From contig OZ244840.1 of NCBI GenBank assembly GCA_965220725.1, positions 1,408,548 through 1,472,547 on the forward strand: a stretch of 64,000 bases of DNA. Direction: 5' to 3'. The number at the start of each line of letters is the position of its first letter. The first letter of the stretch is position 1. A model generated the notes under the pieces. The model was not told the DNA's origin. It saw nothing but the letters and a program-made list of their open reading frames with translations, and searched no databases. Of the stretch, positions 2,242 through 48,234 are shown in pieces. This DNA comes from Arenicellales bacterium (GTDB lineage: Bacteria > Pseudomonadota > Gammaproteobacteria > Arenicellales > JAJDZL01). A program made the position numbers and the translations under genes.

Positions 2242-5200
2242 TTGATTTTCAAATCGAAAATACTGCGATTATTCGCATTCATCGGGTGCTTGCTGTGTGT
2301 TTCGGTTACTGCGTATCCCACAGCGGTATCGGGAAATGTACTGAAGTACACCTTCTCTGATGATGGTACGACCGTGACCATCACTGCCACGGGCAGGCTG
2401 GATGTCACGGATTTCGATATTGTTGCTCTGGATTCCATCCCGTCGGATTTTGAAAGAATCAGGATCGCCGACACACAGATCTGGGGGATTTTTCCGCCGT
2501 CACTGCAGCCCGAGCCCGAGACCCCGATCAGTCGCTACAGAGTACGTCCTGATTTTGTGACTACCGGCAGGGATTCGTACGATGGTACACCCGAGTTGGA
2601 CGGGTTGAGCAACTACGCCTACGATTCCAATTACCATATTCAGTTCAGCACCTGGTCAGAGCGGTTGGAGTTGGACAGCGACCATCTGACGGGGAACATC
2701 TACCAGATTTCGGACGGAGTGACGACGTTCACGGGAAGGTTGTATGACACCGATACCACAATCAAACAACTCGGAGACAATGATTTCCATATCGAGAATG
2801 CGATTGGCAGTCAGAAGATCATTTTCACAACCCGGACCAGCCTGACCCCGAGTTTCGGCACCGCGACGGTGGCTGATCAGAGTTACACGCAAGGCCGGGC
2901 CATCAGTGACCTCCAGTTGCCGGCGGCGAGCGGTGGCGATGGCACGCTGAGCTATTCGGTTATTCCGGCATTGCCGGCAGGGTTGTCGTTTGATGCAACG
3001 AGTCGCAAGATTACAGGCACACCGACTGCCGCACAGGCGGCGACCGAGTACACCTATTCCGTGATTGATACCGACGGCGACATCGCGTTGCTGAAGTTCA
3101 TGATCACGGTGGTGCAACAGCCGCACACGCTGAAGTACACCTTCTCTGATGACGGCACGACCGTGACCATCGCTGCCACGGGCAGGCTGGATGTCACGAA
3201 TTTCACTTTTGTTCGGGATGGCGTCCCGGGGGACTATTCACGAATCAAATTCGACGACACAGGGATCTGGGGGATTCATCCGCCGTCGCAGCCCACCACC
3301 CAGGCCAGACGCTACGACGGACTTCCTGATTTTGTGACTACCGGTGAGGATACCTACGGTGGTACATCCGAGTTGGACGGGTTGAGCAACTACGCCTACG
3401 ATTCCAATTACCACATTCGGTTCAATACCTGGCTCAAGTATCTGGAGCTGGACAACGGGCGTCTGACGGGAAACATCTACCAGATTTCGGACGGAGTGAC
3501 GACGTTCACGGGAAAGTTGTATGACACTGATACCACAATCAAACAACTCGGAGACAATGACTTCCACATCGAGCATGCGATTGGCAGTCAGAAGATCATT
3601 TTCACAACCCGGACCAGTCTGACACCGAGTTTCGGCACCGCGACGGTGGCTGATCAGAGTTACATGCAGAACCAGGCGATCAGTGAGTTGCAGTTGCCGG
3701 CGGCGAGCGGTGGCGATGGCACGCTGACCTACTCGGTCATTCCGGCATTACCCACAGGGTTGTCGTTTGATGCAGCGAGCCGCAAGATAACAGGCACACC
3801 GACTGCTGCACAGGCGGCGACCGAGTACACCTATTCTGTGACTGACACCGACGGCGACATCGCGTTGCTGAAGTTCATGATCACGGTGGTGCAGCGGCCG
3901 CACACGCTGACATTCACGTTCTCTGACAATGGCACGACCTCGACCATTGCGGCCTCGGGCAGTCTGGATGTTTCGGGTTTCACTTTTGACCGGGATCTGG
4001 AACAGCGGACAACTTTGAATCTCAAGATCGACGATACGGGTATCTGGGTGATTCATCCACAGCACCAGAACATCATCAATGTTTCGAAGAGTCGCTATAA
4101 GGATCTTCCGGCCTTTGTGACCACCGGCGGGGATACCTATACGGGCAGTACTGAAGTCCAGAATCTCAGCAACTATACCCAGCATGACTTCGCCATCAGG
4201 TTCAGTCCTTCGGGTAGGTATCTGGAAATCGACAAGGCGAACCTGACCGGTGGTATCTACGATCTTACGGGCGAATCGGCGACGTTCACGGGTACGTTGC
4301 TGAGTACCCTCAAAGACAATGACTTTCACATCGAGCATGCGATTGGGATTCACAAGATCATTTTCACGACGCCGGTTTATTTCGGCAATGCGACGATTGG
4401 CAATAAGACATACACCAAGGGTAAGGCGATCAGTGATTTTGAGCTGCCTCAGGCGCGCAGCAGCGACGATCAGACGGTATCTTATTCGATCAGCCCGGAT
4501 TTGCCTGCCGGGTTGTCATTCAATGCTGCGAGCCGCAAGTTGACGGGCACCCCGACTGTGGTGCAGGCAGCCACCGAGTACACCTACACAGCGATGGATT
4601 CGGACGGCGACACTGCGACGCTGACGTTCGAGATCACGGTGTTGCAGCCGCGTACGTTGAGGTTCACCTTCTCCGATGACGGCACAACCACGACGATTGC
4701 CGCTGCGGGCAGCCTGGATGTTTCGGGCTTCAAAATCGATAAGGAGGATACGCAGCCGGCTGACGATGATTATCTCAAAATAGCCGATACCGACCGCTGG
4801 GCGATTTATCCGCCGATTACCAACTACAATGTTCCGCTGAGGCGCTATAAGGATCTTCCGAACTTCGCGACCACCGGCAGGAGCAGCTATACAGGCCATG
4901 ATGAAGCCCGTAGTATGCCAAACTACTCCAACGAGTTTACCATCCGATTCCACACCCATCTCAAGTGGATGGAAGTTGACAAGGCGAGCCTGACTGGAGA
5001 TATCTACAATCCCTCGGGCAAGAAGGTGACATTCACCGGCACGTTGCTGAACACTCTCGATGACAATGACTTCCACATCGAGTTTGCGATCGGTCACCAG
5101 AAGATCATCTACACGACGAGGCCCAACAATACGCCGGACTTTGGTGTTGCGACAGTTGCCGATCAGGCTTACGTGAAAGATGAGGCGATCAGCGAACTCC

Positions 5201-8200
5201 TGCTGCCGGCGGCGACCGGTGGTGATGGCACGCTGAGCTATTCGATAAGCCCGGCCCTGCCCGCAGGACTGTCGTTTGATGATGTGAGCCGCAAGTTGAC
5301 AGGCACACCGACAACAGATCAGGCGGCGACTGAGTACACCTACACTGCGAGCGATGACGAGGAGGACACTGCGACACTGACGTTCAAGATTTCGGTGGTG
5401 CCGGTACCGGACAAGCCGTCTGGTTTCAGTGCGGTTGGAAACAACGGACAGGTGAGCCTGCGCTGGGTCAATCCGCGCAACAGCCTGATCACGAAATACC
5501 AGTACCGGCAACGAGTCGGCAGCGGGAATTTTGGTGCCTGGGAGGACATGTCGGACAGTGATGCGAATACCACCAGTCACACGGTGACCGGACTGACCAA
5601 CGGCACCGGCTACAGTTTCAGGATCCGGGCGGTGATTTCCCAGGTCAACGGAGTCGAGTCGGATGTGGTCACCGCAACACCCCAATTGATGCAGCCGGCA
5701 AAACCGACGCGGTTGTATGCATCCGTGCCGGCGACAGGTTCGGTTGACTTGCACTGGGTTGCGGTTGATGCGAGTGCGACCAGTTGGGAATACCGTAAAC
5801 GGTTCGAGGTCAGGCGAGGAACCGACGGGACACTGGTACGGCAGGATGACTATGAGAACTGGACTGCGGTGACCAACAGCACTTCAACCACCCGTATGGT
5901 TCAGGTCACCGGGTTGGAGACCGGTGTCAATCTGGGAAGCGGTGAGGAAGGCTGGTATCGGTTCCAGGTCCGTGGAAAGAATTCACAGGGGGTGGGATCG
6001 GCGTCCGATGAGGTTCAGGCGCGGCCGGTCATTGAGACGGATCTTTTCGGACCGGGTTATTCTGAACAACCCCAACGCTTCACGATTATTTCCGGACAGC
6101 ATACCACCTACATCCATCCGTCAATCATTAACCTGCATACGACGGAAGCCAATCCTAGTATGACTATCAGGGTGGAACCCGTAACCATCACACATACGTT
6201 CAAACCACAGGTTGACGGATGGATACCTAGTCATAGTGCGGACCTTCATCGCCAGGCACACACGTTCTCGGGTACACACAACGGTGCCACGACGAATCCG
6301 CTGGCTGGAACGGCGTCAGTCCGTGCGGGTGGGTTTCAAAGAGGTTCAGTGAATTTTTATTTCAGCTGGCTTGTGCCTCCTGATGCACCGACTTCAGTGT
6401 CTGTGGCAGCCGCCGGCAGTGGCCGTGCATTGCTGAGCTGGGGTGATTTACCCTCAACAACGCACGAGCCGATACGCAATGCGATCAGTTACTGGGAATA
6501 CCGCTCCAAGGAATCGACAGCCACAGACTATACGGCTGACTGGAAACGGGTGGCTGGCAGCTCCGGGGCAACCCGCAGTCATCTTGTCACCGGTCTCGAC
6601 GACAGCAAGTCCTATGATTTCGCAGTGCGGGCGGTGATCGACGCGGCCCGCGTCGACAACCTGATCCGACCGGACGACCCGACCGCGGACATCGTCTTGG
6701 AAGGCTCGGCGGCAACCACCAGTGAGTCGTTCACTCCGGGTGAAGGGGTGGCGGCCGTGTTGGTCAATATCCCGTCGCTTGCGGTGACAGAGGGTGCTTC
6801 GGTGACCTACACGGTGTCGCTGGGCAAGCAGCCGACTGCGGATGTGACGATCACACCTTCAAGCAGTGTCGCTGCACTTGCGAGTGTGTCTCCGTCCAGT
6901 CTGACCTTCACATCGTCCAACTGGGCGACCTCACAGACGGTGACGGTCACCGGTGTGGTGGACGATGATGGTGTGGGTGGAACAGCGACTGTGACGCACA
7001 GTTTGAGCAGCACGGATACGGATTATGCGGGACTGGCTGCTTTGGCATTGCCGAGTGTCTCGGTCACGGTGAGCGATGATGACACTCCCGATCTGACGCT
7101 GTCGGTGACCAGTCTTACCGGTCTGGATGAGGCAGGAACGCAGTCAAGGACTTACACGGTCAAACCGACGACCGCGCCGGCTTCGACGTTGACCGTGACG
7201 CCGCTGGCAGGGAGTTCGTCTGTGACACTGTCACCGGCCAGTCTGAGTTTTGATTCCAGCAACTGGGAGACGGCGCAGACAGTCACGGTGACCGGTGCAC
7301 AGGACGATGATGCAGTTGCAAATGATGTGCTGATCACGCATGGACTCAGCGGTCCGGCGGAATACAGTTCGTTGGATGGCACTGCGTATCAGGTGACAGC
7401 GGCGGTAAGTGATGATGACACGGCCGGTATTACAGCGCCGTTACCCGCCAGATTCAATCTGCGCGAAGGCAGCAGTTATGGGTATTCGGTTAAGTTGCAG
7501 ACCAAACCATCGGCAGCGGTGACACTGTCGGTCGGCAGCAGCAACACCAATGCGGTGACTGGCGGTTCAGTGACCTTCACACCAGGCAACTGGTCAACAC
7601 CGCAGACATTGACGATCACCGCGGTGGATGATGCGACTGCCACATCAGCGGTGCTGACGCGCAGTCTCAGCGGTGCGGCCGAGTATGCGGCATTGACGCT
7701 GTCATCGGTAACGGTGGACGTGATCGACAATGACAGCCCCGGACTGGTGGTGTTCACCAATACCCTGGCGATGATCGAGGCAGGTGATGATGCCAGCTAT
7801 ACCGTTTCACTGGCGACCCAGCCGACAGCCGACGTGACACTGACGGTGACCAGTGGCGATTCAACGCTTGCGCAGGTGTCGTCCGACACCGGATCCACCA
7901 AAACCTTCTCCGGCAGCGCTGATCTGACGTTCACGAATTCGAATTGGTCGAGCGCACAGACAGTGACGGTACGCAGTCCTGTTGATGAAAACTCAACCGA
8001 TGACAGCGTGACGCTGACCCACACCGCGGTGTCAACGGATTCAGATTACAACGCAGCAGACTTCAGTGCAGCGAATGTAACGGTGAGCATTACAGATGTG
8101 CCGGCACCAGCCAAACCCACGGATTTCAAGGCGAAACCGGGTAACACCGAGGTGACGCTGAGCTGGTCTGATCCATCCAACGACACCATCACGAAATACC

Positions 8201-11200
8201 AGGTGCGACACAAGGCTGGCTCGTCGTTTGATGACACCGCCACAGATGACGCCCTGTGGACAGACATTACAGGAAGCAACGCTGATACCACCGCGTATAA
8301 GTTGACCGGTCTCACCAATGGCACGCAGTACGTGTTTCAGATTCGGGCGGTGAATGCTGGTGGAAGTGGAATCGCGTCAGATGCATTGACCACGGCACCT
8401 CAGACACCTCCGCCTGCACCAACCGACTTTGCAGCGAAGGCGGGTGATGCGAAGGTGACGCTGACGTGGTCTGATCCATCCGACAGCAGCATCACGAAAT
8501 ACCAGGTGCGCCACAAGCAAGGCGAGTCGTTTGACAATACCACTGCCGATGATGACCTGTGGGCTGACATTCCGGAAAGTGATAGTGAGACCACAGAGCA
8601 CATCGTGATGAATTTGGACAACGATACGAAGTATGTGTTCCAGATTCGGGCGGTGAGGTCCGGCGTTGCGGGTGCTGAAACCGCAGCTGCGACGGCAACA
8701 CCAATTGCGGTACCGAAGAAGCCGTCTGGCCTCAGCACCATTGTGAATAGCATGCAGGTGAAACTGATCTGGAACCACCCGCAGGACAGTAGCATAACAA
8801 AATATCAGTACAAGCGCAGATTAGGCAATGGTCCATATTCTGTGGAGTGGGTTGACATGACGGGCAGCAATGCGCAGACCACTGAGTATCTGTTTACCGG
8901 ACTGCCCAATTACAATCGTTTCAGTTTCAAGATCCGGGCAGTCAATGCCAGTGGAGGTGGAGCCGAGTCCGATGTAGTGACTGCGCAACCCGAGATATTA
9001 CAGCCGGCAAAGCCGAAGCGATTGCACGCAGTCGTTCCGGTGACCGGGACTGTCGATTTGCACTGGGTTACCGTTGATGCGAGCTCGACCAGTTGGGAGT
9101 ATCGAAAACGGTTCGAGGTGCGACGTAGCAACGGGACACTGGTACGGCAGGAAGATTACGGGAACTGGACTGCGGTGACTGACAGCACCGTGACTACACG
9201 TTCGGCTCAGATAACCGGGTTGGAAACTGGAGCCAATCTGGGCTCCGACGAGCAGGGCTGGTATCGATTCCAGGTTCGTGGAAGGAATTCACTGGGGATG
9301 GGTCCGGCTTCCGATGAGGTTGAGGTGCGACCGGTTCAGATCGACGAGACTATACTTCAGGGGCCTGGCAATACCACACAAACCCAAAAATTCACGATAG
9401 TATCCGGGCAGTACACCACCTACACCTATCCTTCAATTATCAACCCGAATACAACGACGTCTGGTGCCAGAGTAACCATGCTGGTAAGAAACAAGCCCTC
9501 TGCCGTCAAAGAGACCTTTGAGCCACAGGCAACTGAATGGATGTTGGGTCAGAGTAAGGAAATTCTTCGCCAGGTACACACATTCTGCTGCACGCATCAC
9601 GGTGACACAGCAAACCCGCTGGAAGTGCAGGGATCGCTCCGTTTGGGTCAGCAATTGGGAAATAGCGTGAGTTTTGAATTCAGCTGGCTTGCACCTCCTG
9701 ATGCACCGACTTCACTGTCTGCGGCGGCCGCTGGCAGTGGACGTGCGTTGCTGAGCTGGGGCGATTCAGCCTCAGCGCATGAGCCGATACGCAATGCGAT
9801 CAGTTACTGGGAATACCGCTCCAAGGAGTCGACAGCCACAGACTATACGGCCGACTGGAAACAGGTACCCGGCAGTACCCGAACAACCCGCAGTCATCTT
9901 GTCACCGGTTTGCTCGACAGCAAGTCCTATGATTTCTCGGTGCGGGCGGTAATCGATGCGGCCCGCATCGACAACCTGATCCGACCGGACGATCCGACTG
10001 CGGACCTCGTACTGGAAGGTGCGGCGGCAACCACCAGCGCATCGTTCACTCCGGGTACAGGTGCGGCGGCGGTGTTTGCCACGCCCTCGACACTTGCCGT
10101 GACCGAGGGCAGCACTACGACCTACACGGTGTCGCTGGGCAAGCAGCCGAGTGCAAATGTGACGATCACGCCTTCAAGCAGTGCCGCAGCGCTGGCGAGT
10201 GTGTCTCCGTCCAGTCTGACTTTCACAGCGTCCAACTGGGCGACATCACAGACGGTGACGGTCACCGGTGTGACGGACGATGATGGTGTCGGTGGAACAG
10301 CGACCGTGACGCACAGTTTGAGCAGCACTGATACGGATTATGCGGGATTGGCTGCTTCGGCATTGCCGAGTGTCTCGGTGACAGTAACCGATGACGATAC
10401 TCCCAGTCTGACGCTTTTGCCAACCAGTCTTACCGGTCTGGATGAGGCGGGAACGCAGTCAAAGACATACACGGTCAAACCGACAACCGCGCCGGCTTCG
10501 ACGTTGACCGTGACACCGCTGGCAGGGAGTTCGTCTGTCACGCTGTCACCGGCCAATCTGAGTTTTGATTCCACCAACTGGCAGACGGCGCAGACAGTCA
10601 CGGTGACCGGTGCACAGGACGATGATGCAGTTGCAAATGATGTGCTGATTACGCATGGACTCAGTGGTCCGGCGGAATATGGCTCGTTGGACGGTACTGC
10701 ATATCAGGTAACAGCGGCGGTAAGTGATGATGACACGCCCGGAATTGCAGCGCCGTTACCCACCAGCTTCAATCTACGCGAAGGGAGCGAATATGAATAT
10801 TCGGTTGTTTTGCAGACCCGACCATCGGCAGCGGTGACACTGTCGGTCAGCAGCGACAGCAATGCGGTGACTGCCAATTCGGTGACCTTCACACCGAGCA
10901 ACTGGGCAACACCACAGACGTTGACGATCACCGCAGTGGATGATGCGACTTCCACAGAAGCGGAGCTGACGCCCAGTTTCACCGGTGCGGCCGAGTATGC
11001 GGCGCTGACGCTGTCATCGGTAACTGTGAATGTGATCGACAATGACAGCGCCGGCCTGGTGGTGCTCACGAATGCTTTGGCGATGAGCGAAGCGGGTGAT
11101 GATGCCAGCTATACCGTTGCGCTCGCAACCCAGCCGACAGCCAATGTGACCCTAACCGTGACCAGTGGCGATTCGACGCTGGCGCAGGTGTCGGCCGATA

Positions 11201-14200
11201 CGGGCAGTACCAAGACCTTTTCCGGCAGTGCAGTGCTCACGTTCACGAATTCGAACTGGTCGAGCGCGCAGACAGTGACGGTACGCAGTCCCATTGATGA
11301 CAACTCAACCGACGACAACGTGACGCTGACGCATACAGCGGCATCAACGGATACCAACTACAACAGTGCTGACTTCAGTGCTGCAAATGTGACGGTGAGC
11401 ATCACTGAATTACCGGTACCAGCCAAGCCGACGGATCTCAAGGCGTCGCGGGGTAACACCGAGGTGACGCTGAGTTGGTCCGACCCATCTGACAGTACCA
11501 TCACCAAGTACCAGGTGCGACACGCCAAGGGTACTTCGGTGCCGGTCAACATGGCCTGGACCGACATCATCGGTAGCGGCGCCAGTACCACCACCCACAC
11601 GGTGACAGGTCTGATCAACGATACGGAATACGCGTTCGAGTTGCGGGCAGTGAACAATTACGGAAACAGCTTGGCAGCAAGTACGACAGAGATACCGGTG
11701 GCGGAGCCGATACCGGTGCCACAGGATTTCACAGTCACGGTGGAGTTTCAGCGCGATAAAAACTTCGACTACAAGCCATTCATCCGTCTGGCGTGGACCA
11801 AGGCGGAAGGAATTGTGGGAGGGCAATTCAAGCGAAAGAAACAGGTCAATTCCGGATGGTGGGTGGTTTCCCCCTGGACGGCTCTTCCAGAGCTCTGTTT
11901 CGAACTCGAACATCCTTTCTGGCTGGAGTCCGCCGAGTGGAGCACGACCTATGAGTATGAGGTTCGCTTTGTGAGAAATGGCGTGCCGGGGCAGAGCACC
12001 GGCCGCATCCGGGTGACGACGCCCGATCACCCGGGCCCGGGGCTGGAGCTTGCCGCGAGAACGCCACCGGCCACCGACATGCGTCTGTACGAGACAGGCG
12101 ATGGCATAAGAGGACTCTTCGAAAGCTATCGTGTGCGGTTGATCACGCAACCGGCCGGCAATGTGACGGTGACGGTGACCAGCAGCGATACGAGTGCGGC
12201 GACGGTATTGCCATCGACTGTGACGTTCACGCCCGACAACTGGAGGGCCAGCTCACACATCATCTTCGTCTTCGGCGTGGACGATGACGTGGTCACAGGC
12301 ACCCGTCCCGTGGAGCTCGCGCACAGCATCAGTGAGACGAATTCACCGAACGACTATCCGACGACGCTGGAATTGCCATCGGCGCATGTGCGGATAGTGG
12401 ATGATGATGTGGAGTTGGAGCTTGACTTGTCTTCCGACGACTTGACGGTGGACGAGAACGGGACAGCAACGTTCGATGTGAAGCCATCGGTCGAGATTCC
12501 CGGAAGCATCACGTTGTCGGTTACGAGTGCCGACCCGTTGGCCGTGACCGTATCTCCGGCGGAACTGACATTCACGTATGCGGACTGGGAGACGACACAG
12601 ACGGTGACGGTGACCGGCGTGGATGACGTCGACGCGGTGCAGGAAACGACGATGGTGAGCCTGACATCGACCGAAGTGTCGGCAACCGTTTCAGTGACGG
12701 TGACCGATGACGATGTGGTGCCGGGCGCGCCGCGCAATCTGAGAGCGACGGCGGGTGACCAACAGGTGACGCTCACCTGGACAGCAGCATCGGGCCCGGG
12801 GATCACCAAGTACCAGGTGCGCTACGCCAAGGGAACTTCGGTGCCGTCGAATACGGCGTGGACGGACGTTGCAAACGGCGCGAACGCCACGACCCATACG
12901 GTGACGGGGCTGGAGAACAGTGAGCAATACGCCTTTGAGGTCAGTGCGGTGAATAGTGCCGGGAACGGCGCGGCGGCCAGCACGACAGCGACGCCGGTGC
13001 TCCCGATTCCAGCAGCGCCGAACGATTTGGACGTGACAGCGGGCAACGGTCAGGTGACACTTACCTGGACCCTGCCGACCAATACGAGTTCGATCGATAA
13101 AGCGCAAGTGCGTTACAAAATCCAAACAGACGCGGGCTGGAATGAGTGGGTACAAGCGTCTACGACCACTTCACATTCGCTGACAGGTCTGGTGAACGGG
13201 GCGAGGTATGTGTTTCAGGTCCGTTTGGAGAACGCAGCCGGCATCGGCGCGGCAGCAACGAAAGAAGTGTTGCTGGCATTGACGGCACCAGAGGCGCCGA
13301 CGGATTTTAATGCTACGGGTGGCGATACCCGGGCGACTTTGAGTTGGACGTTGCCAACCAATGTGAATCTGATTTCAAGTATTGATGTGCGCCACAAGCT
13401 GAAAACGGCGACAGAATGGTCCGATTGGACAATCCTTGCATCGAATTTGACCTCATATATCGTCGATGGATTGGTGAACGGGGAGACGTACTCGTTTGAG
13501 GTACGCGCGGTGAACACAGCCGGCGAAGGAATTGCATCGGCAGAAGCAACACTTGCGCTGACAAAACCGGGCCAGCCAACTGACCTTTCGGCGACAAGTG
13601 GAATCAACGAGGCAGATCTCAGTTGGACCCTGCCGACCAATGTGAATTCGATTACCCTGGTCCAGGTGCGTCACAAGGTCAAATCGGAACCGGATACACA
13701 GTGGAGTGCTTGGACAGATCTCGCATCGGCGACGGCGACCACGCACAAGGTCACAGGACTGGTGAACGGAGAAACCTACACGTTCGAAGTACGGGCGTCG
13801 AACTCAGTAGGTGACGGTGACCTTGCATCAGTGGATTTGATGGTGGAGTTGACGGTACCGGGAGTCGTGACAGGGTTTGCAGCGGTCGCCGGTGATACTG
13901 AGGCAGACCTTGGTTGGACGTTGCCGACCAATGCGAAAATCACCAGTGTTGAGGTGCGCCACAAGGTGAAATCGGCGCCGGATACGCAATGGAGTGGTTG
14001 GACAGCGCTCTCGTTGTCGGCGAACACACATAAGGTGACGGGATTGTTCAACGGGGAGACTTACGTGTTCGAGGTTCGGGCGAGGAACTCGAAGGGTGCC
14101 GCAGACGCGGTGTCGGCCGAGGCGACATTGGCGCCGACAAGACCGGGTAAGCCGACGGGACTGACAGCGGCGGAAGGTGACGCCAGGATCGTCGTCAATT

Positions 14201-15786
14201 GGAAGCTGCCGACCAATGTAAACGATCTTACCGCAGTGCAGGTGCGTCATAAGGCAGCATCGGCGAATTGGACGAATGCGGACAGATGGGTCTCGCTTTC
14301 GTCAGATGCCACTACGTACACGGTATCGACCGGGTTGATCATTGGCGAGGAGTACACGTTTCAGGTTCGGGCGGTCAACGCCGTTGGCGAAGGTGATGCG
14401 GCATCGATCAATGCGACAGTGGTTGAGAAGAATTTACTGATTCAGCAGTCCGTCGAGGAGATTCTGCCGAACGTGGCGGTCATCATGGGCGATCAGACTG
14501 TAACTGGAATCAGAGACCGTATCCAAAATTATGAGATGACAACGCGTGCAGGTGGCGTACGGTTCAACCTGACAAACGATGGACTGTTCTCACCTGGGAG
14601 TTGGCGGGCGCCGGTTCCAGTGGATGAGCAACGATTCTTGTACGATGGTCAGTTTGCGACGCTGGTGAATTCACTTGGCGTGTCGAATAATGGCCGCCGC
14701 GCGCCATCATTCTCAATATGGACCGGTGCGACCATCAAGCGGTTCAATGACAGTGGCGGCGAGCTGCAATACGATGGTGAGTTGACGGGATTCAGTTTTG
14801 GGATTGATACCAGGCTGGGCGAGGACATGGTTGGCGGAGTCACTTTTTCGAATTACACCACCAAGACAGATTACAAACGCGACTCCACGTCGGGGCACCA
14901 AAAGGTGGAGGTGAACAGCGTGAATCCGTATTTCGGGCTCAAGTCACCTGAGTACTCGGTTTGGTCATTTGTCGGAATGGGTTCCGGTGACCTGGAGGTG
15001 ACGCAGGAAAATGTGGGTGGCATCAATACCAGTGACCTCTCGATGAATTCGATGGGCGTCGGTGCGAGTGGCGCAGTGTGGTACGGCAAGAGGACAACGT
15101 TTCACGTGACGGGTGAATTCACCCGGACGGAAATGGACGTGGACGGTTCAGATACCATTGACGCAGTCAAGGTCGGCGTCATGCGCAGCCGCATGCTGAT
15201 AGCCGCCAGTCGGCGCCATGAGATGATTCAGGGTGGCTATGTGGAACCGAAAATTGAGTTTGGCGTAGCCTACGACAGCGGTGACGGCGCCACTGGCAGT
15301 CGGGTGGAGGTTGGTGCTGGGATGCATTACCTGTCGCCTTCGCATCGGATGACGATGTCACTGTCTTCTTACGGTTTGATGGAACGCAACGACTACGGCG
15401 AATGGGGTGTCCAAGGCAGCATACGGATGTTGCCGGGCGTGAGGGATCGCGGCTTGTCATTCAGTCTGCAACCCTCGTATGGCGCCACGGTGCGCGGTGT
15501 TGAGCGAATCTGGGAGACCGGTAAGCTGGCCGGCGAGGTTGCCGATGAGCGGCAATACCAGCCTCGACTGGATGCGAATCTTGGTTATGGATTCCGGATC
15601 ATCGGAGATCGGGGATTGCTGACTCCGTACAGTGAGGTGTCACTTGAAGGGGAGGATAGAACCTATCGAGTTGGAACCCGATTCAGGTATGGCGCCAGAT
15701 TTGAGTTGAATCTGGTTGGTGAAAGCGCGGATTCGCTAGACGACACCGACCGATCAATCAAGCTTCAAGGTGGAATTCGGTTCTAG
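2242..15786 (+). CDS. Giant autotransporter-type adhesin, paralog 1 (4514 aa)
   Basis: Uninterrupted 13.5-kb ORF with a TTG start, followed by a hydrophobic signal peptide (MIFKSKILRLFAFIGCLLCVSVTA). Passenger: 4x(unknown ~170-aa module + LPAGLSFDxxSRKxTGTPT cadherin-like Ig domain), FN3 domains (LxWxxP...Y.Y....W......T.H.VTGL.N.T.Y.F.xRAVN) and Calx-beta-like repeats (FTxxNWxxxQTVTVTxxDDD). The last ~450 aa show the autotransporter beta-domain pattern (SIWTGATIKRF...YDGELTGFSFGIDTRLG...) and end in ...LQGGIRF. Confidence 0.85.
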   Translation: MIFKSKILRLFAFIGCLLCVSVTAYPTAVSGNVLKYTFSDDGTTVTITATGRLDVTDFDIVALDSIPSDFERIRIADTQIWGIFPPSLQPEPETPISRYRVRPDFVTTGRDSYDGTPELDGLSNYAYDSNYHIQFSTWSERLELDSDHLTGNIYQISDGVTTFTGRLYDTDTTIKQLGDNDFHIENAIGSQKIIFTTRTSLTPSFGTATVADQSYTQGRAISDLQLPAASGGDGTLSYSVIPALPAGLSFDATSRKITGTPTAAQAATEYTYSVIDTDGDIALLKFMITVVQQPHTLKYTFSDDGTTVTIAATGRLDVTNFTFVRDGVPGDYSRIKFDDTGIWGIHPPSQPTTQARRYDGLPDFVTTGEDTYGGTSELDGLSNYAYDSNYHIRFNTWLKYLELDNGRLTGNIYQISDGVTTFTGKLYDTDTTIKQLGDNDFHIEHAIGSQKIIFTTRTSLTPSFGTATVADQSYMQNQAISELQLPAASGGDGTLTYSVIPALPTGLSFDAASRKITGTPTAAQAATEYTYSVTDTDGDIALLKFMITVVQRPHTLTFTFSDNGTTSTIAASGSLDVSGFTFDRDLEQRTTLNLKIDDTGIWVIHPQHQNIINVSKSRYKDLPAFVTTGGDTYTGSTEVQNLSNYTQHDFAIRFSPSGRYLEIDKANLTGGIYDLTGESATFTGTLLSTLKDNDFHIEHAIGIHKIIFTTPVYFGNATIGNKTYTKGKAISDFELPQARSSDDQTVSYSISPDLPAGLSFNAASRKLTGTPTVVQAATEYTYTAMDSDGDTATLTFEITVLQPRTLRFTFSDDGTTTTIAAAGSLDVSGFKIDKEDTQPADDDYLKIADTDRWAIYPPITNYNVPLRRYKDLPNFATTGRSSYTGHDEARSMPNYSNEFTIRFHTHLKWMEVDKASLTGDIYNPSGKKVTFTGTLLNTLDDNDFHIEFAIGHQKIIYTTRPNNTPDFGVATVADQAYVKDEAISELLLPAATGGDGTLSYSISPALPAGLSFDDVSRKLTGTPTTDQAATEYTYTASDDEEDTATLTFKISVVPVPDKPSGFSAVGNNGQVSLRWVNPRNSLITKYQYRQRVGSGNFGAWEDMSDSDANTTSHTVTGLTNGTGYSFRIRAVISQVNGVESDVVTATPQLMQPAKPTRLYASVPATGSVDLHWVAVDASATSWEYRKRFEVRRGTDGTLVRQDDYENWTAVTNSTSTTRMVQVTGLETGVNLGSGEEGWYRFQVRGKNSQGVGSASDEVQARPVIETDLFGPGYSEQPQRFTIISGQHTTYIHPSIINLHTTEANPSMTIRVEPVTITHTFKPQVDGWIPSHSADLHRQAHTFSGTHNGATTNPLAGTASVRAGGFQRGSVNFYFSWLVPPDAPTSVSVAAAGSGRALLSWGDLPSTTHEPIRNAISYWEYRSKESTATDYTADWKRVAGSSGATRSHLVTGLDDSKSYDFAVRAVIDAARVDNLIRPDDPTADIVLEGSAATTSESFTPGEGVAAVLVNIPSLAVTEGASVTYTVSLGKQPTADVTITPSSSVAALASVSPSSLTFTSSNWATSQTVTVTGVVDDDGVGGTATVTHSLSSTDTDYAGLAALALPSVSVTVSDDDTPDLTLSVTSLTGLDEAGTQSRTYTVKPTTAPASTLTVTPLAGSSSVTLSPASLSFDSSNWETAQTVTVTGAQDDDAVANDVLITHGLSGPAEYSSLDGTAYQVTAAVSDDDTAGITAPLPARFNLREGSSYGYSVKLQTKPSAAVTLSVGSSNTNAVTGGSVTFTPGNWSTPQTLTITAVDDATATSAVLTRSLSGAAEYAALTLSSVTVDVIDNDSPGLVVFTNTLAMIEAGDDASYTVSLATQPTADVTLTVTSGDSTLAQVSSDTGSTKTFSGSADLTFTNSNWSSAQTVTVRSPVDENSTDDSVTLTHTAVSTDSDYNAADFSAANVTVSITDVPAPAKPTDFKAKPGNTEVTLSWSDPSNDTITKYQVRHKAGSSFDDTATDDALWTDITGSNADTTAYKLTGLTNGTQYVFQIRAVNAGGSGIASDALTTAPQTPPPAPTDFAAKAGDAKVTLTWSDPSDSSITKYQVRHKQGESFDNTTADDDLWADIPESDSETTEHIVMNLDNDTKYVFQIRAVRSGVAGAETAAATATPIAVPKKPSGLSTIVNSMQVKLIWNHPQDSSITKYQYKRRLGNGPYSVEWVDMTGSNAQTTEYLFTGLPNYNRFSFKIRAVNASGGGAESDVVTAQPEILQPAKPKRLHAVVPVTGTVDLHWVTVDASSTSWEYRKRFEVRRSNGTLVRQEDYGNWTAVTDSTVTTRSAQITGLETGANLGSDEQGWYRFQVRGRNSLGMGPASDEVEVRPVQIDETILQGPGNTTQTQKFTIVSGQYTTYTYPSIINPNTTTSGARVTMLVRNKPSAVKETFEPQATEWMLGQSKEILRQVHTFCCTHHGDTANPLEVQGSLRLGQQLGNSVSFEFSWLAPPDAPTSLSAAAAGSGRALLSWGDSASAHEPIRNAISYWEYRSKESTATDYTADWKQVPGSTRTTRSHLVTGLLDSKSYDFSVRAVIDAARIDNLIRPDDPTADLVLEGAAATTSASFTPGTGAAAVFATPSTLAVTEGSTTTYTVSLGKQPSANVTITPSSSAAALASVSPSSLTFTASNWATSQTVTVTGVTDDDGVGGTATVTHSLSSTDTDYAGLAASALPSVSVTVTDDDTPSLTLLPTSLTGLDEAGTQSKTYTVKPTTAPASTLTVTPLAGSSSVTLSPANLSFDSTNWQTAQTVTVTGAQDDDAVANDVLITHGLSGPAEYGSLDGTAYQVTAAVSDDDTPGIAAPLPTSFNLREGSEYEYSVVLQTRPSAAVTLSVSSDSNAVTANSVTFTPSNWATPQTLTITAVDDATSTEAELTPSFTGAAEYAALTLSSVTVNVIDNDSAGLVVLTNALAMSEAGDDASYTVALATQPTANVTLTVTSGDSTLAQVSADTGSTKTFSGSAVLTFTNSNWSSAQTVTVRSPIDDNSTDDNVTLTHTAASTDTNYNSADFSAANVTVSITELPVPAKPTDLKASRGNTEVTLSWSDPSDSTITKYQVRHAKGTSVPVNMAWTDIIGSGASTTTHTVTGLINDTEYAFELRAVNNYGNSLAASTTEIPVAEPIPVPQDFTVTVEFQRDKNFDYKPFIRLAWTKAEGIVGGQFKRKKQVNSGWWVVSPWTALPELCFELEHPFWLESAEWSTTYEYEVRFVRNGVPGQSTGRIRVTTPDHPGPGLELAARTPPATDMRLYETGDGIRGLFESYRVRLITQPAGNVTVTVTSSDTSAATVLPSTVTFTPDNWRASSHIIFVFGVDDDVVTGTRPVELAHSISETNSPNDYPTTLELPSAHVRIVDDDVELELDLSSDDLTVDENGTATFDVKPSVEIPGSITLSVTSADPLAVTVSPAELTFTYADWETTQTVTVTGVDDVDAVQETTMVSLTSTEVSATVSVTVTDDDVVPGAPRNLRATAGDQQVTLTWTAASGPGITKYQVRYAKGTSVPSNTAWTDVANGANATTHTVTGLENSEQYAFEVSAVNSAGNGAAASTTATPVLPIPAAPNDLDVTAGNGQVTLTWTLPTNTSSIDKAQVRYKIQTDAGWNEWVQASTTTSHSLTGLVNGARYVFQVRLENAAGIGAAATKEVLLALTAPEAPTDFNATGGDTRATLSWTLPTNVNLISSIDVRHKLKTATEWSDWTILASNLTSYIVDGLVNGETYSFEVRAVNTAGEGIASAEATLALTKPGQPTDLSATSGINEADLSWTLPTNVNSITLVQVRHKVKSEPDTQWSAWTDLASATATTHKVTGLVNGETYTFEVRASNSVGDGDLASVDLMVELTVPGVVTGFAAVAGDTEADLGWTLPTNAKITSVEVRHKVKSAPDTQWSGWTALSLSANTHKVTGLFNGETYVFEVRARNSKGAADAVSAEATLAPTRPGKPTGLTAAEGDARIVVNWKLPTNVNDLTAVQVRHKAASANWTNADRWVSLSSDATTYTVSTGLIIGEEYTFQVRAVNAVGEGDAASINATVVEKNLLIQQSVEEILPNVAVIMGDQTVTGIRDRIQNYEMTTRAGGVRFNLTNDGLFSPGSWRAPVPVDEQRFLYDGQFATLVNSLGVSNNGRRAPSFSIWTGATIKRFNDSGGELQYDGELTGFSFGIDTRLGEDMVGGVTFSNYTTKTDYKRDSTSGHQKVEVNSVNPYFGLKSPEYSVWSFVGMGSGDLEVTQENVGGINTSDLSMNSMGVGASGAVWYGKRTTFHVTGEFTRTEMDVDGSDTIDAVKVGVMRSRMLIAASRRHEMIQGGYVEPKIEFGVAYDSGDGATGSRVEVGAGMHYLSPSHRMTMSLSSYGLMERNDYGEWGVQGSIRMLPGVRDRGLSFSLQPSYGATVRGVERIWETGKLAGEVADERQYQPRLDANLGYGFRIIGDRGLLTPYSEVSLEGEDRTYRVGTRFRYGARFELNLVGESADSLDDTDRSIKLQGGIRF
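2341..5400 (+). repeat. Four tandem ~250-263-aa composite modules (unknown domain + cadherin-like Ig domain) in paralog 1
   Basis: Module starts are marked by L(K/T/R)(Y/F)TFSD(D/N)GTT at 2341, 3130, 3907 and 4657. Each module ends ...TEYTY(S/T)xxDxDGDxAxLxFxITVV before the next. Confidence 0.85.
5401..11700 (+). repeat. Tandem ~3.3-kb super-repeat (two copies) inside paralog 1
   Basis: VPDKPSGFSAV... at 5404 recurs as VPKKPSGLSTI... at 8710, an offset of about 3306 nt. The same domain order follows in both copies: FN3, FN3-like, ~115-aa unknown insert, FN3-like, 4 Calx-like repeats, FN3. The second copy is shorter at its 3' end. Confidence 0.8.
14430..15786 (+). other. Putative linker plus autotransporter beta-barrel translocator region of paralog 1
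   Basis: The repeat architecture stops at ...ATVVEKNLLIQQSVEEILPNV. What follows has alternating-hydrophobic strand patterns, G/Y/W-rich beta-domain motifs and a terminal aromatic F. Confidence 0.65.
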
Positions 15787-16990: not shown

Positions 16991-17367
16991 TTACCAGCAT
17001 CAGGGTGTATCGATGGTGGCTACCTTTCGAATCCATTGCTGTTTGATGCAAATCGGAACATTGGAGCTGAGTGAAGTTTCATATAGCGAGCGTTTGGCAG
17101 GTTTCGATTAATGATGGGTAACCTTAAGCACAATCTGCACTGTGAGGGATTGTCGATGGTTGACACGTCTAGGTTGAACATCCGGCAATCACGGATATCG
17201 TTCGCGTCTGGATACGAGCGCCGGCGCGCAGAAGAAACCTACCAAGTGGGTCAGGAATCATACTCCGAGTGCAAGATGCAGGATGTCATCACCATACGCT
17301 GGAATTTGTATTCGGCATCCACTCATACGCAGGGCGATGCGTCATCGGTTGGGGCGGTTCGATAATT

Positions 17368-20300
17368 TTGAAATCGAAAATATCGCGATTATTCGCATTC
17401 ATCGGGTGCTTGCTGTGCTTTTCGGTTACTGCGTATCCCACAGTGGCATCGGGAAATGTACTGAAGTACACCTTCTCTGATGATGGTACGACCGTGACCA
17501 TCACTGCCACGGGCAGGCTGGATGTCACGGACTTCAATTTTGTTCTGGATACCATCCCGTCGGATTATGCGCGAATCAGGATCGACGACACACAGATCTG
17601 GGGGATTCATCCGCCGCTTCAGCAGCCCGCCACCCCGATCAGACGCTACAGCGGACTTCCTGATTTCGTGACTACCGGCAGGGATACCTACGATGGTACG
17701 AACGAGCTCGACACTTTAAGCAACTACAGCTCCAATTACCAGATTGAGTTCAGCACATGGTCCAAGCGGTTGGAGTTGGACACGGAACGTTTGACGGGGA
17801 ACATCTACCAGATTTCGGACGGAGTGACGACGTTCACGGGAAGGTTGTATGACACCGATACCACAATCAAACAACTCGGAGACAATGATTTCCACATCGT
17901 GAATGCGATTGGCAGTCAGAAGATCATATTCACAACCCAGACCAGCCTGACACCGAGTTTCGGTACTGCGACGGTGGCTGATCAGAGTTACATGCAAGGC
18001 CGGGCCATCAGTGACCTCCAGTTGCCGGCGGCGAGCGGTGGCGATGGCACGCTGAGCTACTCGGTCATTCCGGCATTGCCGGCAGGGTTGTCGTTTGATG
18101 CAGCGAGCCGCAAGATAACAGGCACACCGACTGCCGCACAGGCGGCGACCGAGTACACCTATTCTGTTATTGACACCGACGGCGACATCGCGTTGCTGAA
18201 GTTCATGATCACGGTGGTGCAACAGCCGCACACGCTGAAGTACACCTTCTCTGATGACGGCACGACCGTGACCATCGCTGCCACGGGCAGGCTGGATGTC
18301 ACGAATTTCACTTTTGTTCGGGATGGCGTCCCGGGGGACTATTCACGAATCAAATTCGACGACACAGGGATCTGGGGGATTCATCCGCCGTCGCAGCCCA
18401 CCACCCAGGCCAGACGCTACGACGGACTTCCTGATTTTGTGACTACCGGTAAGGATACCTACGGTGGCACATCCGAGTTGGACGGGTTGAGCAACTACGC
18501 CTACGATTCCAATTACCACATTCGGTTCAATACCTGGCTCAAGTATCTGGAGCTGGACAACGGGCGTCTGACGGGAAACATCTACCAGATTTCGGACGGA
18601 GTGACGACGTTCACGGGAAAGTTGTATGACACTGATACCACAATCAAACAACTCGGAGACAATGACTTCCACATCGTGCATGCGATTGGCAGTCAGAAGA
18701 TCATTTTCACAACCCGGACCAGCCTGACACCGAGTTTCGGCACCGCGACGGTGGCTGATAAGAGTTACATGCAGAACCAGGCGATCAGTGAGTTGCAGTT
18801 GCCGGCGGCGAGCGGTGGCGATGGCACGCTGACCTACTCGGTCATTCCGGCATTACCCACAGGGTTGTCGTTTGATGCAGCGAGCCGCAAGATAACAGGC
18901 ACACCGACTGCTGCACAGGCGGCGACCGAGTACACCTATTCTGTGACTGACACCGACGGCGACATCGCGTTGCTGAAGTTCATGATCACGGTGGTGCAGC
19001 GGCCGCACACGCTGACATTCACGTTCTCTGACAATGGCACGACCTCGACCATTGCGGCCTCGGGCAGTCTGGATGTTTCGGGTTTCACTTTTGACCGGGA
19101 TCTGGAACAGCGGACAACTTTGAATCTCAAGATCGACGATACGGGTATCTGGGTGATTCATCCACAGCACCAGAACATCATCAATGTTTCGAAGAGTCGC
19201 TATAAGGATCTTCCGGCCTTTGTGACCACCGGCGGGGATACCTATACGGGCAGTACTGAAGTCCAGAATCTCAGCAACTATACCCAGCATGACTTCGCCA
19301 TCAGGTTCAGTCCTTCGGGTAGGTATCTGGAAATCGACAAGGCGAACCTGACCGGTGGTATCTACGATCTTACGGGCGAATCGGCGACGTTCACGGGTAC
19401 GTTGCTGAGTACCCTCAAAGACAATGACTTTCACATCGAGCATGCGATTGGGATTCACAAGATCATTTTCACGACGCCGGTTTATTTCGGCAATGCGACG
19501 ATTGGCAATAAGACATACACCAAGGGTAAGGCGATCAGTGATTTTGAGCTGCCTCAGGCGCGCAGCAGCGACGATCAGACGGTATCTTATTCGATCAGCC
19601 CGGATTTGCCTGCCGGGTTGTCATTCAATGCTGCGAGCCGCAAGTTGACGGGTACCCCGACTGCGGTGCAGGCAGCCACCGAGTACACCTACACAGCGAC
19701 GGATTCGGACGGCGACACTGCGACGCTGACGTTCGAGATCACGGTGTTGCAGCCGCGTACGCTGAGGTTCACGTTTTCCGATGACGGCACAACCACGACC
19801 ATTGCCGCTGCGGGCAGCCTGGATGTTTCGGGCTTCACATTCGATACGGATAAGCAGCCGACTAACGATAGGTTTCTCAGTATTGCCAATACGGATCGCT
19901 GGGCGATTTACCCATCGACTGTGGTTGGCATCAATATTCCACTGCGCCGCTATAAGGATCTTCCGGGCTTCGTGACCACCGGTAGCGACAGCTACACGGG
20001 CCTCGATCAAGTCGAAAATCTTCCAAACTACTCCGACGAGTTCACCATCCGGTTCCACACCCATGCCAAGTGGCTGGAAGTTGACAAGGCGAGCCTGACT
20101 GGAGATATCTACAATCCCTCGGGCAAGAAGGTGACGTTCACGGGCACGTTGCTGAGCACCCTCACTGACAATGACTTCCACATCGAGCTTGCGATCGGTC
20201 ACCAGAAGATCATATACACGACGACGCCCAACAAGACGCCGGATTTCGGTGTTGCGACAGTTGCCGATCAGACTTACGTGAAAGATGAGGCGATCAGCGA

Positions 20301-23300
20301 GCTCCTGCTGCCGGCGGCGACCGGTGGTGATGGCACGCTGAGCTATTCGATAAGCCCGGCCCTGCCCGCAGGACTGTCGTTTGATGATGTGAGCCGCAAG
20401 TTGACGGGCACACCGACAACAGATCAGGCGGGGACTGAGTACACCTACACTGCGAGCGATGACGAGGAGGACACCGCAACACTGACGTTCAAGATTTCGG
20501 TGGTGCCGGTACCGGACAAGCCGTCTGGTTTGAGTGCGGTTGGAAACAATGGACAAGTGAGCCTGCGCTGGGTCAATCCGCGCAACAGTCTGATCACGAA
20601 ATACCAGTACCGTCAACGAGCCGGCAGCGGGAATTTTGGTGCCTGGGAGGACATGTCGGACAGTGATGCGAATACCACCAGCCATACGGTGACCGGACTG
20701 ACCAACGGCACCGGCTACGGTTTCAGGATCCGGGCGGTGATTTCCCAGGTCAACGGAGTCGAGTCGGATGTGGTCACCGCAACACCCCGGTTGATGCAGC
20801 CGGCAAAGCCGACGCGGTTGCATGCATCCGTGCCGGCGACAGGTTCGGTTGACTTGCACTGGGTTGCGGTTGATGCGAGTGCGACCAGTTGGGAATACCG
20901 CAAACGGTTCGAGGTCAGGCGAGGCAGCGACGGGACACTGGTACGGCAGGACAGCTATGAAAACTGGACTGCGGTGACCAACAGCACTGCGACCACCCGT
21001 ACGGTTCAGGTCACCGGGTTGGAGACCGGCGTCAATCTGGGAAGCGGCGAGGAAGGCTGGTATCGGTTCCAGGTTCGTGGAAGGAATTCATTGGGGATGG
21101 GTCCGGCGTCCGATGAGGTTCAGGCGCGGCCGGTCCTCGAAACGGGTCTTTTCGGACCGGGTTATTCTGAACAACCCCAACGCTTCACGATCATTTCCGG
21201 ACAGCATACCACCTACACCTATCCGTCAATCATTAACCTGCATACAACGGAAGCCAATCCTAGTATGACTATCAGGGTGGAACCCGTAACCATCACACAT
21301 ACGTTCAAACCACAGGTAGACGGATGGATACCTAGTCATAGTGCGGACCTTCATCGTCAGGCGCACACGTTCTCGGGTACACACAACGGTGCCACGACGA
21401 ATCCGCTGGCTGGAACGGCGTCAGTCCGTGCGGGTGGGTCTCAAAGAGGTTCAGTGAATTTTTATTTCAGCTGGCTTGTGCCTCCTGATGCCCCGACTTC
21501 ACTGTCTGCGGCAGCCGCCGGCAGTGGCCGTGCATTGCTGAGCTGGGGTGATTTACCCTCAACAACGCACGAGCCGATACGCAATGCGATCAGTTACTGG
21601 GAATACCGATCCAAGGAATCGACAGCCACAGACTATACGGCGGACTGGAAACGGGTGGCTGGCAGCTCCGGGGCAACCCGCAGTCATCTTGTCACCGGTC
21701 TCGACGACAGCAAGTCCTATGATTTCGCAGTGCGGGCGGTGATCGACGCGGCCCGAATCGACAACCTGATCCGACCGGACGACCCGACCGCGGACATCGT
21801 CTTGGAAGGCTCGGCGGCAACCACCAGCGAGTCGTTCACTCCGGGTGAAGGGGTGGCGGCCGTGTTGGTCAATATCCCGTCGCTTGCGGTGACAGAGGGT
21901 GCTTCGGTGACCTACACGGTGTCGCTGGGCAAGCAGCCGACTGCGGATGTGACGATCACACCTTCAAGCAGTGTTGCGGCTCTTGCGAGTGTGTCTCCGT
22001 CCAGTCTGACCTTCACAGCGTCCAACTGGGCGACATCACAGACGGTGACGGTCACCGGTGTGGTGGACGATGATGGTGTGGGTGGAACAGCGACCGTGAC
22101 GCACAGTTTGAGCAGCACGGATACGGATTATGCGGGATTGGCTGCTTTGGCATTGCCGAGTGTCTCGGTCACGGTGAGCGATGATGACACTCCCGATCTG
22201 ACGCTGTCGGTGACCAGTCTTACCGGTCTGGATGAGGCAGGAACGCAGTCAAGGACTTACACGGTCAAACCGACGACCGCGCCGGCTTCGACGTTGACCG
22301 TGACGCCGCTGACAGGGAGTTCGTCTGTGACGCTGTCACCGGCCAGTCTGAGTTTTGATTCCAGCAACTGGCAGACGGCACAGACAGTCACAGTGACCGG
22401 TGCACAGGACGATGATGCAGTTGCAAATGATGTGCTGATCACGCATGGACTCAGCGGTCCGGCGGAATACAGTTCGTTGGACGGCACTGCGTATCAGGTG
22501 ACAGCGGCGGTAAGCGATGATGACACGGCCGGTATTACAGCACCGTTACCCGCCAGATTCAATCTGCGCGAAGGCAGCAGTTATGGGTATTCGGTTGTAT
22601 TGCAGACCAAACCATCGGCAGCGGTGACGCTGTCGGTCGGCAGCAGCAACACCAATGCGGTGACTGGCGGTTCAGTGACCTTCACACCAGGCAACTGGGC
22701 AACACCGCAGACATTGACAATCACCGCGGTGGATGATGCGACTGCCACATCAGCGGTGCTGACGCGCAGTCTCACCGGTGCGGCCGAGTATGCGGCATTG
22801 ACGCTGTCATCGGTAACGGTGGACGTGATCGACAATGACAGTCCCGGACTGGTGGTGTTCACCAATACCCTGGCGATGATCGAGGCAGGTGATGATGCCA
22901 GCTACACCATTTCACTGACGACCCAGCCGACAGCCGATGTGACACTGACGGTGACCAGTGGCGATTCAACGCTTGCGCAGGTGTCGTCCGACACCGGATC
23001 CACCAAAACATTCTCCGGCAGTGCTGATCTGACGTTCACGAATTCGAACTGGTCGAGCGCACAGACGGTGACGGTACGCAGTCCTGTCGATGGCAACTCA
23101 ACCGATGACAGCGTGACGCTGAGTCATACCGTGGCTTCAACGGATGCGGGTTACAACAATGTTGACCTGAGTGCTTCGGACATCACGGTGAGCATTTCCG
23201 ATGTGCCGGCGCCGGCGGCGCCGACGGGTTTGACGGCGACCGCGGGTGATGCACAGGTGACGCTGGAGTGGACGGATCCGGGCAACAGTACGATTACGCG

Positions 23301-48100: not shown

Positions 48101-48234
48101 TCTTCGATGACGTGATGGTGATGGATGAGGACCTCCAGGTGCGCCAGAATCGAGTCGCACTGGTCCGATTTGTGAGTGATCTTTTCCGCGAGGTTGCCGA
48201 ACTCTCCTTACTCAAGCCAATCAGGGTGAATTGA
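45172..48234 (+). CDS. glyQS: Fused glycyl-tRNA synthetase alpha-beta (GlyQ-GlyS in one polypeptide)
   Basis: 1020-aa ORF. Residues 1 to about 290 align with E. coli GlyQ ([49 protein letters not shown]). A ~25-aa linker follows (46030-46110), and from [14 protein letters not shown] onward it is GlyS-like. TTG start at 45172: an in-frame TAG lies 12 nt upstream and AGAGGA sits 7 nt upstream. Confidence 0.88.

Follow-up and report, generated by a model that had tools for sequence, protein, structure and literature searches.

In the fibrillar adhesin concept, a stalk is combined with an adhesive domain and a PF03797 anchor (Monzon, Lafita & Bateman, 2021, PMC8286594; PMC9210967). Adhesive domains are still ill-defined in Gram-negative autotransporters (PMC8286594). 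Passengers with immunoglobulin-like (Ig-like) domains are typical of inverse (type Ve) autotransporters, e.g. intimin, in which the barrel is N-terminal (PMC8286594). Here, we describe two giant open reading frames (ORF1 and ORF2) in a 64,000-nt stretch of an Arenicellales bacterium (contig OZ244840.1, positions 1,408,548 to 1,472,547, forward strand; hereafter the window), each of which carries four copies of a repeated module near its N-terminus. With a probability that we put at roughly 0.55, the module is an undescribed extracellular all-β domain and serves autotransporter-anchored fibrillar adhesins as a head for adhesion or ligand binding. If so, it extends the poorly catalogued tip domains of Gram-negative autotransporters by one family and perhaps also by an undescribed fold. 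The module is small, confidently predicted and recombinantly tractable.

Each of the four N-terminal units in both proteins consists of the module and a second domain. A motif search matched exactly the start positions that an earlier note on this DNA had given for all eight modules (Table 1), with DNDFHI, LPxGLSF and TGTPT at regular spacing behind each start. The motifs quoted in that note are all found in an alignment of the eight copies (A1), in which they read L[KTR][YF]TFSD[DN]GTT, RY..LP.F.TTG, SNY, LTG.IY, TFTG.L and DNDFHI..AIG.QKII[FY]TT. This alignment has ~169 columns, 62 of which are invariant, and the copies share 47–84% identity with copy 1. The size of the module was refined to ~160–169 aa, reaching from ~4 residues ahead of LKYTF up to ...KIIFTT(R). 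Hidden Markov model (HMM) E-values of 1e-81 to 1e-84 per copy are far beyond chance. The second domain, which had been described as a typical Ig domain, is a He_PIG domain (PF05345) behind every module (125.6 bits against a gathering threshold of 24, E 1.1e-36, four stretches in 2341–5400), and Foldseek also finds cadherin-like modules of SraP and cadherins for it.

No described family and no solved fold accommodates the module in any of the libraries searched. No window copy matches a family in Pfam or NCBIfam, PHROGs gives no match, and searches of PDB sequences with module profiles return nothing even at E<=10. When 33 diverse members were compared with Pfam, none fell below E 1e-3; the best chance match was OLF, for one member, at E 1.3e-3. 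An AlphaFold2 (AF2) model of copy 1, built on a 33-sequence alignment, is all-β with 12 strands and is confident (mean predicted local distance difference test score, pLDDT, 90.8; predicted template modelling score, pTM, 0.87). A second AF2 run on the module together with its He_PIG domain yields the same secondary structure of the module (pLDDT 89.8, pTM 0.76). Foldseek finds no neighbour of the module model in the PDB (best E 0.12, template modelling score (TM-score) <=0.26, root mean square deviation (rmsd) above 8 Å) or in BFVD (best E 0.034). The attached He_PIG domain served as a positive control. Residues ~175–263 of the two-domain model form a cadherin-like β-sandwich with a pLDDT of 91–98, which recovers 151 PDB matches at E<=1e-3, led by the cadherin-like part of SraP (4m02; E 1.2e-6, 29% identity, rmsd 3.2 Å over 101 columns) and including SraP 4m00 and 4m03, protocadherins and desmosomal cadherins. 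The silence of Foldseek on the module is meaningful because He_PIG is found so easily in the same kind of model. The earlier note had been unable to place the module in a family and had named a confident match to a described one as counter-evidence; neither the sequence searches nor the structure searches produced such a match. Two internal explanations were also rejected with hhalign: the module is not a diverged Fn3 or He_PIG domain (probability 0.1–0.7% against both profiles), and it is not an internal duplication (N-terminal half against C-terminal half, 0.1%).

The predicted plan of ORF1 and ORF2 is an outer-membrane barrel anchor, a long Ig-like stalk and modules at the distal N-terminus, an arrangement read from the C-terminal PF03797 barrel, the Ig-like units and the N-terminal position of the modules. 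A putative signal peptide can be read in both translations, with typical n, h and c regions (KSK, a hydrophobic LRLFAFIGCLLCVSVTA, then ...AVSG), and only 2–10 residues separate it from the first module. Together with the PF03797 barrel at the C-terminus of ORF1, this agrees with the earlier placement of the module at the distal end of a surface fibre. Behind the four units follow Fn3 domains and other ~100-aa β units. Several passenger segments have no Pfam assignment (~6035–6380 and ~6679–8121, repeated at ~9.7–11.4 kb); one is ~115 aa long and the others are ~100-aa units that show the pattern 'VTEG...TVTVxDDD' and match nothing but fn3_6, at 23.5 bits and thus under the cut-off of 26.4. 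In ORF2, ~29 near-identical 95-aa Fn3 units stand in tandem at ~23300–31000. This array is not present in ORF1 and, as judged from the near-identity of its units, is a very recent expansion. In both giant proteins, a C-terminal barrel of type Va is joined to an Ig-like passenger and not to a β-helix.

The start of ORF2 probably needs correction. The ORF table lists ORF2 at 17269–31974 (4901 aa) with a GTG start at 17269, which is probably mis-set, and a TTG at ~17367 fits the alignment with ORF1. A GGGG-rich ribosome-binding site is present at the proposed TTG. The public gene call for ORF2 (P0002, 'MASGNV...') cuts off the putative signal peptide, and its start is probably wrong too.

The partners of the module across the family were counted with HMMs built on the window's own domains, which covered 113 module instances. 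Fn3 is the neighbouring domain in 91 of them and He_PIG in 13, eight of which are the window's own copies; the remaining nine have no further stalk domain. The earlier statement that the module is always paired with a cadherin-like Ig domain thus applies to all eight copies in the window and fails for the family at large, where Fn3 predominates. Judged from these domain assignments, the pairing with He_PIG is a feature of the lineage and not a rule of the family. The protein N-terminus or a signal peptide lies directly before the module in 25 cases. The N-terminal position that had been noted for the window proteins is likewise not general: modules are interspersed with Fn3 and He_PIG inside giant relatives (P0003–P0007, P0010), and in P0004 (7109 aa) they occur deep inside the protein, at residues 1094, 2415 and 4672. 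The passenger of P0011 (722 aa) contains no domain but the module, and residues 235–722 of this protein can be aligned with the P0016 linker and barrel (43% identity, E 9e-99). The layout of P0023 is the same, with the module alone ahead of the barrel, and the PF03797 barrel is also found in P0016, P0023 and P0029. An autotransporter whose whole passenger is the module argues that the module is functional cargo and not a spacer. These two proteins strengthen the earlier suggestion of a ligand-binding head, with binding itself still a candidate function.

Conservation within the family is unevenly distributed. In 56 non-redundant modules, the N-terminal hairpin (residues 4–25) and the C-terminal strands (133–168) are conserved, and the centre is hypervariable with indel hot spots. 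D11, G13, G22, D25, G86, Y96, F134, G136, D150 and F153 are near-invariant, and in the loops of the conserved core several acidic and aromatic residues are invariant (D11, D12, D25, Y84, Y96, D150, D152 and E156). Such loops might point to recognition assisted by Ca2+. Relatives have S, R, D, Y, T or E in place of H154 of the DNDFH motif. This speaks against an active site built on His, and a catalytic residue at this position was dropped as a candidate.

The two window paralogs provide a second view of constraint. A block of 6 kb (2156–8174 and 17276–23279), which begins 86 nt upstream of the ORF1 start, is shared at 94.7% nucleotide identity. Units 2 and 3 are nearly 100% identical between the paralogs, and units 1 and 4 have diverged. 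The near-identity of units 2 and 3 indicates gene conversion, and on this sequence pattern the block is a gene-conversion mosaic. Between the paralogs, the ratio of nonsynonymous to synonymous substitution rates (dN/dS) reaches 0.59 in module 1 and 0.53 in module 4, compared with 0.06–0.16 in the He_PIG domains beside them and 0.21 over the 600 codons that follow. By this measure, modules 1 and 4 evolve faster in protein than the stalk.

The module defines a genuine family, though a very rare one. Among 1.84 billion cluster representatives, a full HMMER scan found 31 proteins at E<=1e-3 (87–7109 aa, best E 1e-135), eight of which reach E<=1e-30. Scanning 185,579 species-representative genomes with alignments A1 and A3 added 50 loci with 70 further module copies, all in metagenome-assembled genomes (MAGs) of one accession block (OZ244782–OZ244905 and CBDC...). 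Every traceable module protein comes from these MAGs or from contigs of ENA ERZ25072258 or ERZ25067264. The gammaproteobacterial carriers include Ca. Porisulfidus, a recognised sponge symbiont (PMC12988363), Ca. Azophilus, Ca. Foliamicus, Pseudohongiella and others; the remaining carriers are Thermodesulfobacteriota, Longimicrobiales, Nitrospirales and Alphaproteobacteria (including Paracoccaceae and Rhodobacterales). The check proposed in the earlier note, for the module outside this lineage and for its partner domains, therefore yields relatives elsewhere, mostly with Fn3. Carrier genomes can hold several module proteins, with many module copies per protein; the window's own 2.94-Mb contig encodes two more (P0032 and P0042, the latter in the P0029 cluster). 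Scans with the family patterns turned up no relative in JGI metagenome contigs or IMG/VR. A word-indexed protein search with A1 returned only P0001, a fragment, and with A2 nothing; the blank A2 result is a limitation of the index, since A1 found P0001, and no sign of absence. P0001 represents part of a giant module/Fn3 adhesin whose reading frame is broken by a frameshift (locus L001, 10001–12486; ENA ERZ25072258 ctg5783, a long-read contig of low, 2.2x coverage). Genes for giant module/Fn3 adhesins are likely under-called in protein databases.

This distribution is unusual in that a single sampling context, a set of apparently marine metagenomes, holds at least five phyla, with up to 98.7% identity between phyla. 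The latter value is reached by the module proteins of a Gammaproteobacteria MAG (OZ244895, L006) and a Nitrospirales MAG (OZ244884, L005). In this pair, and likewise for L025 with L028 and L007 with L013, gene DNA is 92–95% identical over kilobases and the module protein 97–99%. The near-identical cross-phylum loci have a G+C content of ~69%, and the best module pair between Alphaproteobacteria and Gammaproteobacteria is 91.8% identical. No copy elsewhere exceeds 65% identity to the window modules, which thus form a more divergent branch. Recent lateral transfer across phyla appears more likely than an assembly duplicate because the sequences, though similar, do differ and come from chromosomes that were assembled separately. 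The pattern raises the testable question of whether co-resident symbionts exchange attachment hardware for a common host or matrix ligand. A broader reading, which we hold only tentatively and regard as rather doubtful, is that the module is a mobile adhesion head of new fold common to Gammaproteobacteria, Alphaproteobacteria, Nitrospirota, Gemmatimonadota and Thermodesulfobacteriota of one host-associated community, whose members come to share one host or matrix ligand by swapping giant adhesin cassettes; this would amount to a community-level attachment or recognition code of the holobiont.

As an adhesive head, the module would act as follows. The putative Sec signal peptide that the translation shows would export the protein, and the C-terminal β-barrel, matched by PF03797, would enter the outer membrane and leave the passenger displayed on the surface, a topology taken from type Va biology. 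A long stalk, assigned to Fn3, He_PIG and other Ig-like domains, would then carry the modules at its far N-terminal end, and sometimes along its length, where they may touch a ligand on a host surface, a matrix or a neighbouring cell. Four tandem heads with cadherin-like spacers could allow multivalent binding. In the weakest step of this scheme, the conserved acidic and aromatic loops and the hypervariable centre might fit a Ca2+-assisted, lectin-like or protein-binding site of diversifying specificity. Three observations weigh against a role as a head. The 33-sequence alignment behind the AF2 model is shallow, the module is found internally between Fn3 domains in the manner of a stalk element, and a dN/dS of 0.5–0.6 is relaxed constraint and not positive selection.

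The internal positions are what a structural element without a ligand of its own (a spacer, a cap or a stalk rigidifier) would produce, as is the mixing with Fn3 and He_PIG in the giant relatives and the tandem alternation in the window. However, such an element would hardly be the sole passenger domain, as in P0011 and P0023, or stand directly behind the signal peptide in 25 cases. The module is also ~1.7x the size of a stalk domain, is unrelated to the stalk domains by hhalign and has a dN/dS above that of the stalk, so that a purely structural role is decidedly unlikely. A reading that would keep the binding function and give up the novelty makes the module a very divergent member of a described β-sandwich binding family (a carbohydrate-binding module, a legume or other lectin, PA14/GLEYA or a Pfam putative adhesive domain) that both profiles and Foldseek have missed. 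This is conceivable, and we consider it improbable but worth bearing in mind: PDB profile matches are lacking at E<=10, 0 of 33 members match Pfam below E 1e-3, and the TM-score stays at or below 0.26 with an rmsd above 8 Å, whereas the He_PIG neighbour is easily recognised.

The ligand could also be another bacterium. Autotransporters and cadherins can self-associate, and both are precedents for a homophilic or heterophilic cell-cell association, i.e. co-aggregation or biofilm building among co-resident bacteria in place of host ligand binding. AIDA is discussed in PMC8286594. Near-identical modules in different taxa of the same community, many copies per protein and several module proteins per genome are consistent with such a role, but the hypervariable central loops are easier to reconcile with diversifying recognition than with a conserved homophilic interface, and we regard cell-cell association as unlikely. 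A small surface-displayed enzyme, for instance a carboxylate-based glycosidase or lyase, would account for the near-invariant acidic residues (D11, D25 and D150, plus E156), and classical autotransporter passengers are often enzymes. This reading is highly improbable: the module has no invariant Ser, Cys, His or Lys (H154 being variable), it resembles no enzyme family or structure in the searches, and catalytic domains do not usually occur in several tandem copies within one protein. The adhesive or ligand-binding head is thus the interpretation that we retain.

The genes flanking the giant ORFs are ordinary chromosomal genes (ahcY, metK, ntrBC, glnA and a fused glyQS). The last of these encodes the α and β parts of glycyl-tRNA synthetase in a single 1020-aa ORF (45172–48234, + strand). 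Just upstream of the adhesin genes, a 241-aa ORF (9–734, − strand) matches Spondin_N (PF06468, E 3.6e-6), which is characteristic of extracellular-matrix proteins in animals. At 41779–43630 (+ strand), an N6/N4 DNA methylase ORF (PF01555) overlaps a 282-aa ORF without a family, and the two may form a pair for restriction and modification. Scans of the window for Rfam families and tRNAs were negative. The coordinates of the adhesin features are collected in Table 1.

Table 1. Positions in the window of the two giant ORFs and of their modules, He_PIG domains, signal peptide and barrel.
Feature	Position	Strand	Evidence
ORF1, 4514 aa: putative signal peptide, four module + He_PIG units, stalk rich in Fn3 and with unassigned repeats, autotransporter barrel at the C-terminus	2242..15786	+	
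Putative Sec-type signal peptide of ORF1 (M/L-IFKSKILRLFAFIGCLLCVSVTAYPTAVSG)	2242..2334	+	read from translation; conserved in ORF2
Module copy 1 of ORF1 (copy modelled by AF2)	2341..2835	+	motif search, alignment, HMM, AF2
He_PIG (cadherin-like Ig) domain 1 of ORF1	2842..3120	+	PF05345, own-domain HMM, AF2, Foldseek
Module copy 2 of ORF1	3130..3612	+	motif search, alignment
He_PIG domain 2 of ORF1	3619..3897	+	PF05345, own-domain HMM
Module copy 3 of ORF1 (protein identical to ORF2 copy 3)	3907..4374	+	motif search, alignment
He_PIG domain 3 of ORF1	4375..4650	+	PF05345, own-domain HMM
Module copy 4 of ORF1	4657..5121	+	motif search, alignment
He_PIG domain 4 of ORF1	5128..5406	+	PF05345, own-domain HMM
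Autotransporter β-domain (outer-membrane anchor) of ORF1	14725..15783	+	PF03797, 31.0 bits against cut-off 26, E 2.9e-7
ORF2 (paralog; proposed TTG start at ~17367): N-terminal plan as ORF1, then ~29 near-identical Fn3 units, barrel	17367..31974	+	
Module copy 1 of ORF2	17461..17940	+	motif search, alignment
He_PIG domain 1 of ORF2	17947..18225	+	own-domain HMM
Module copy 2 of ORF2	18235..18717	+	motif search, alignment
He_PIG domain 2 of ORF2	18724..19002	+	own-domain HMM
Module copy 3 of ORF2	19012..19479	+	motif search, alignment
He_PIG domain 3 of ORF2	19480..19755	+	own-domain HMM
Module copy 4 of ORF2	19762..20226	+	motif search, alignment
He_PIG domain 4 of ORF2	20233..20511	+	own-domain HMM

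According to the account in PMC10947273, which cites Robbins et al. 2021, adhesion and eukaryotic-like proteins (Fn3, cadherin) are enriched and laterally transferred in sponge symbionts. The module proteins share with those of that account the richness in Fn3 and cadherin-like domains and the evidence of lateral transfer among co-resident taxa, and one carrier genus, Ca. Porisulfidus, is itself such a symbiont (PMC12988363); in contrast to that account, the shared element here is an unclassified domain and not Fn3 or cadherin. With type Va autotransporters (PF03797), the window proteins have in common a putative N-terminal signal peptide, a passenger and a C-terminal β-barrel above the Pfam cut-off. 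Their passenger, however, is a chain of Ig-like domains and the module: in place of the usual right-handed β-helix, which is typical of type Va but does not strictly define it, the module, He_PIG, Fn3 and ~100-aa β units are found.

The likeness to fibrillar adhesins extends to the long single-polypeptide fibre, the repeated Ig-like stalk (here Fn3 and He_PIG), the envelope anchor (here PF03797) and, at the opposite end, a separate domain that is not of the stalk type. The Fn3 and He_PIG arrays and the PF03797 anchor are present in the window, and the adhesive domain is a candidate with positional and evolutionary support. The tip domain differs in that it belongs to no listed adhesive family, and in that it occurs four times in alternation with a stalk domain and, in relatives, also far inside the stalk. 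The binding region of SraP from Staphylococcus aureus (PDB 4m00–4m03) consists of an L-lectin, a β-grasp and two cadherin-like modules. In SraP, the lectin head is projected by the cadherin-like modules; its sialic-acid specificity is not transferable to the window module. The candidate head of the window proteins likewise sits on a cadherin-like Ig domain, and He_PIG is structurally closest to the cadherin-like module of SraP. The head itself does not have the legume-lectin fold, the module alone does not match 4m00, and the anchor is an outer-membrane barrel here and LPXTG in SraP. By analogy, the SraP binding region would be a close functional counterpart of the window's head and cadherin-like units.

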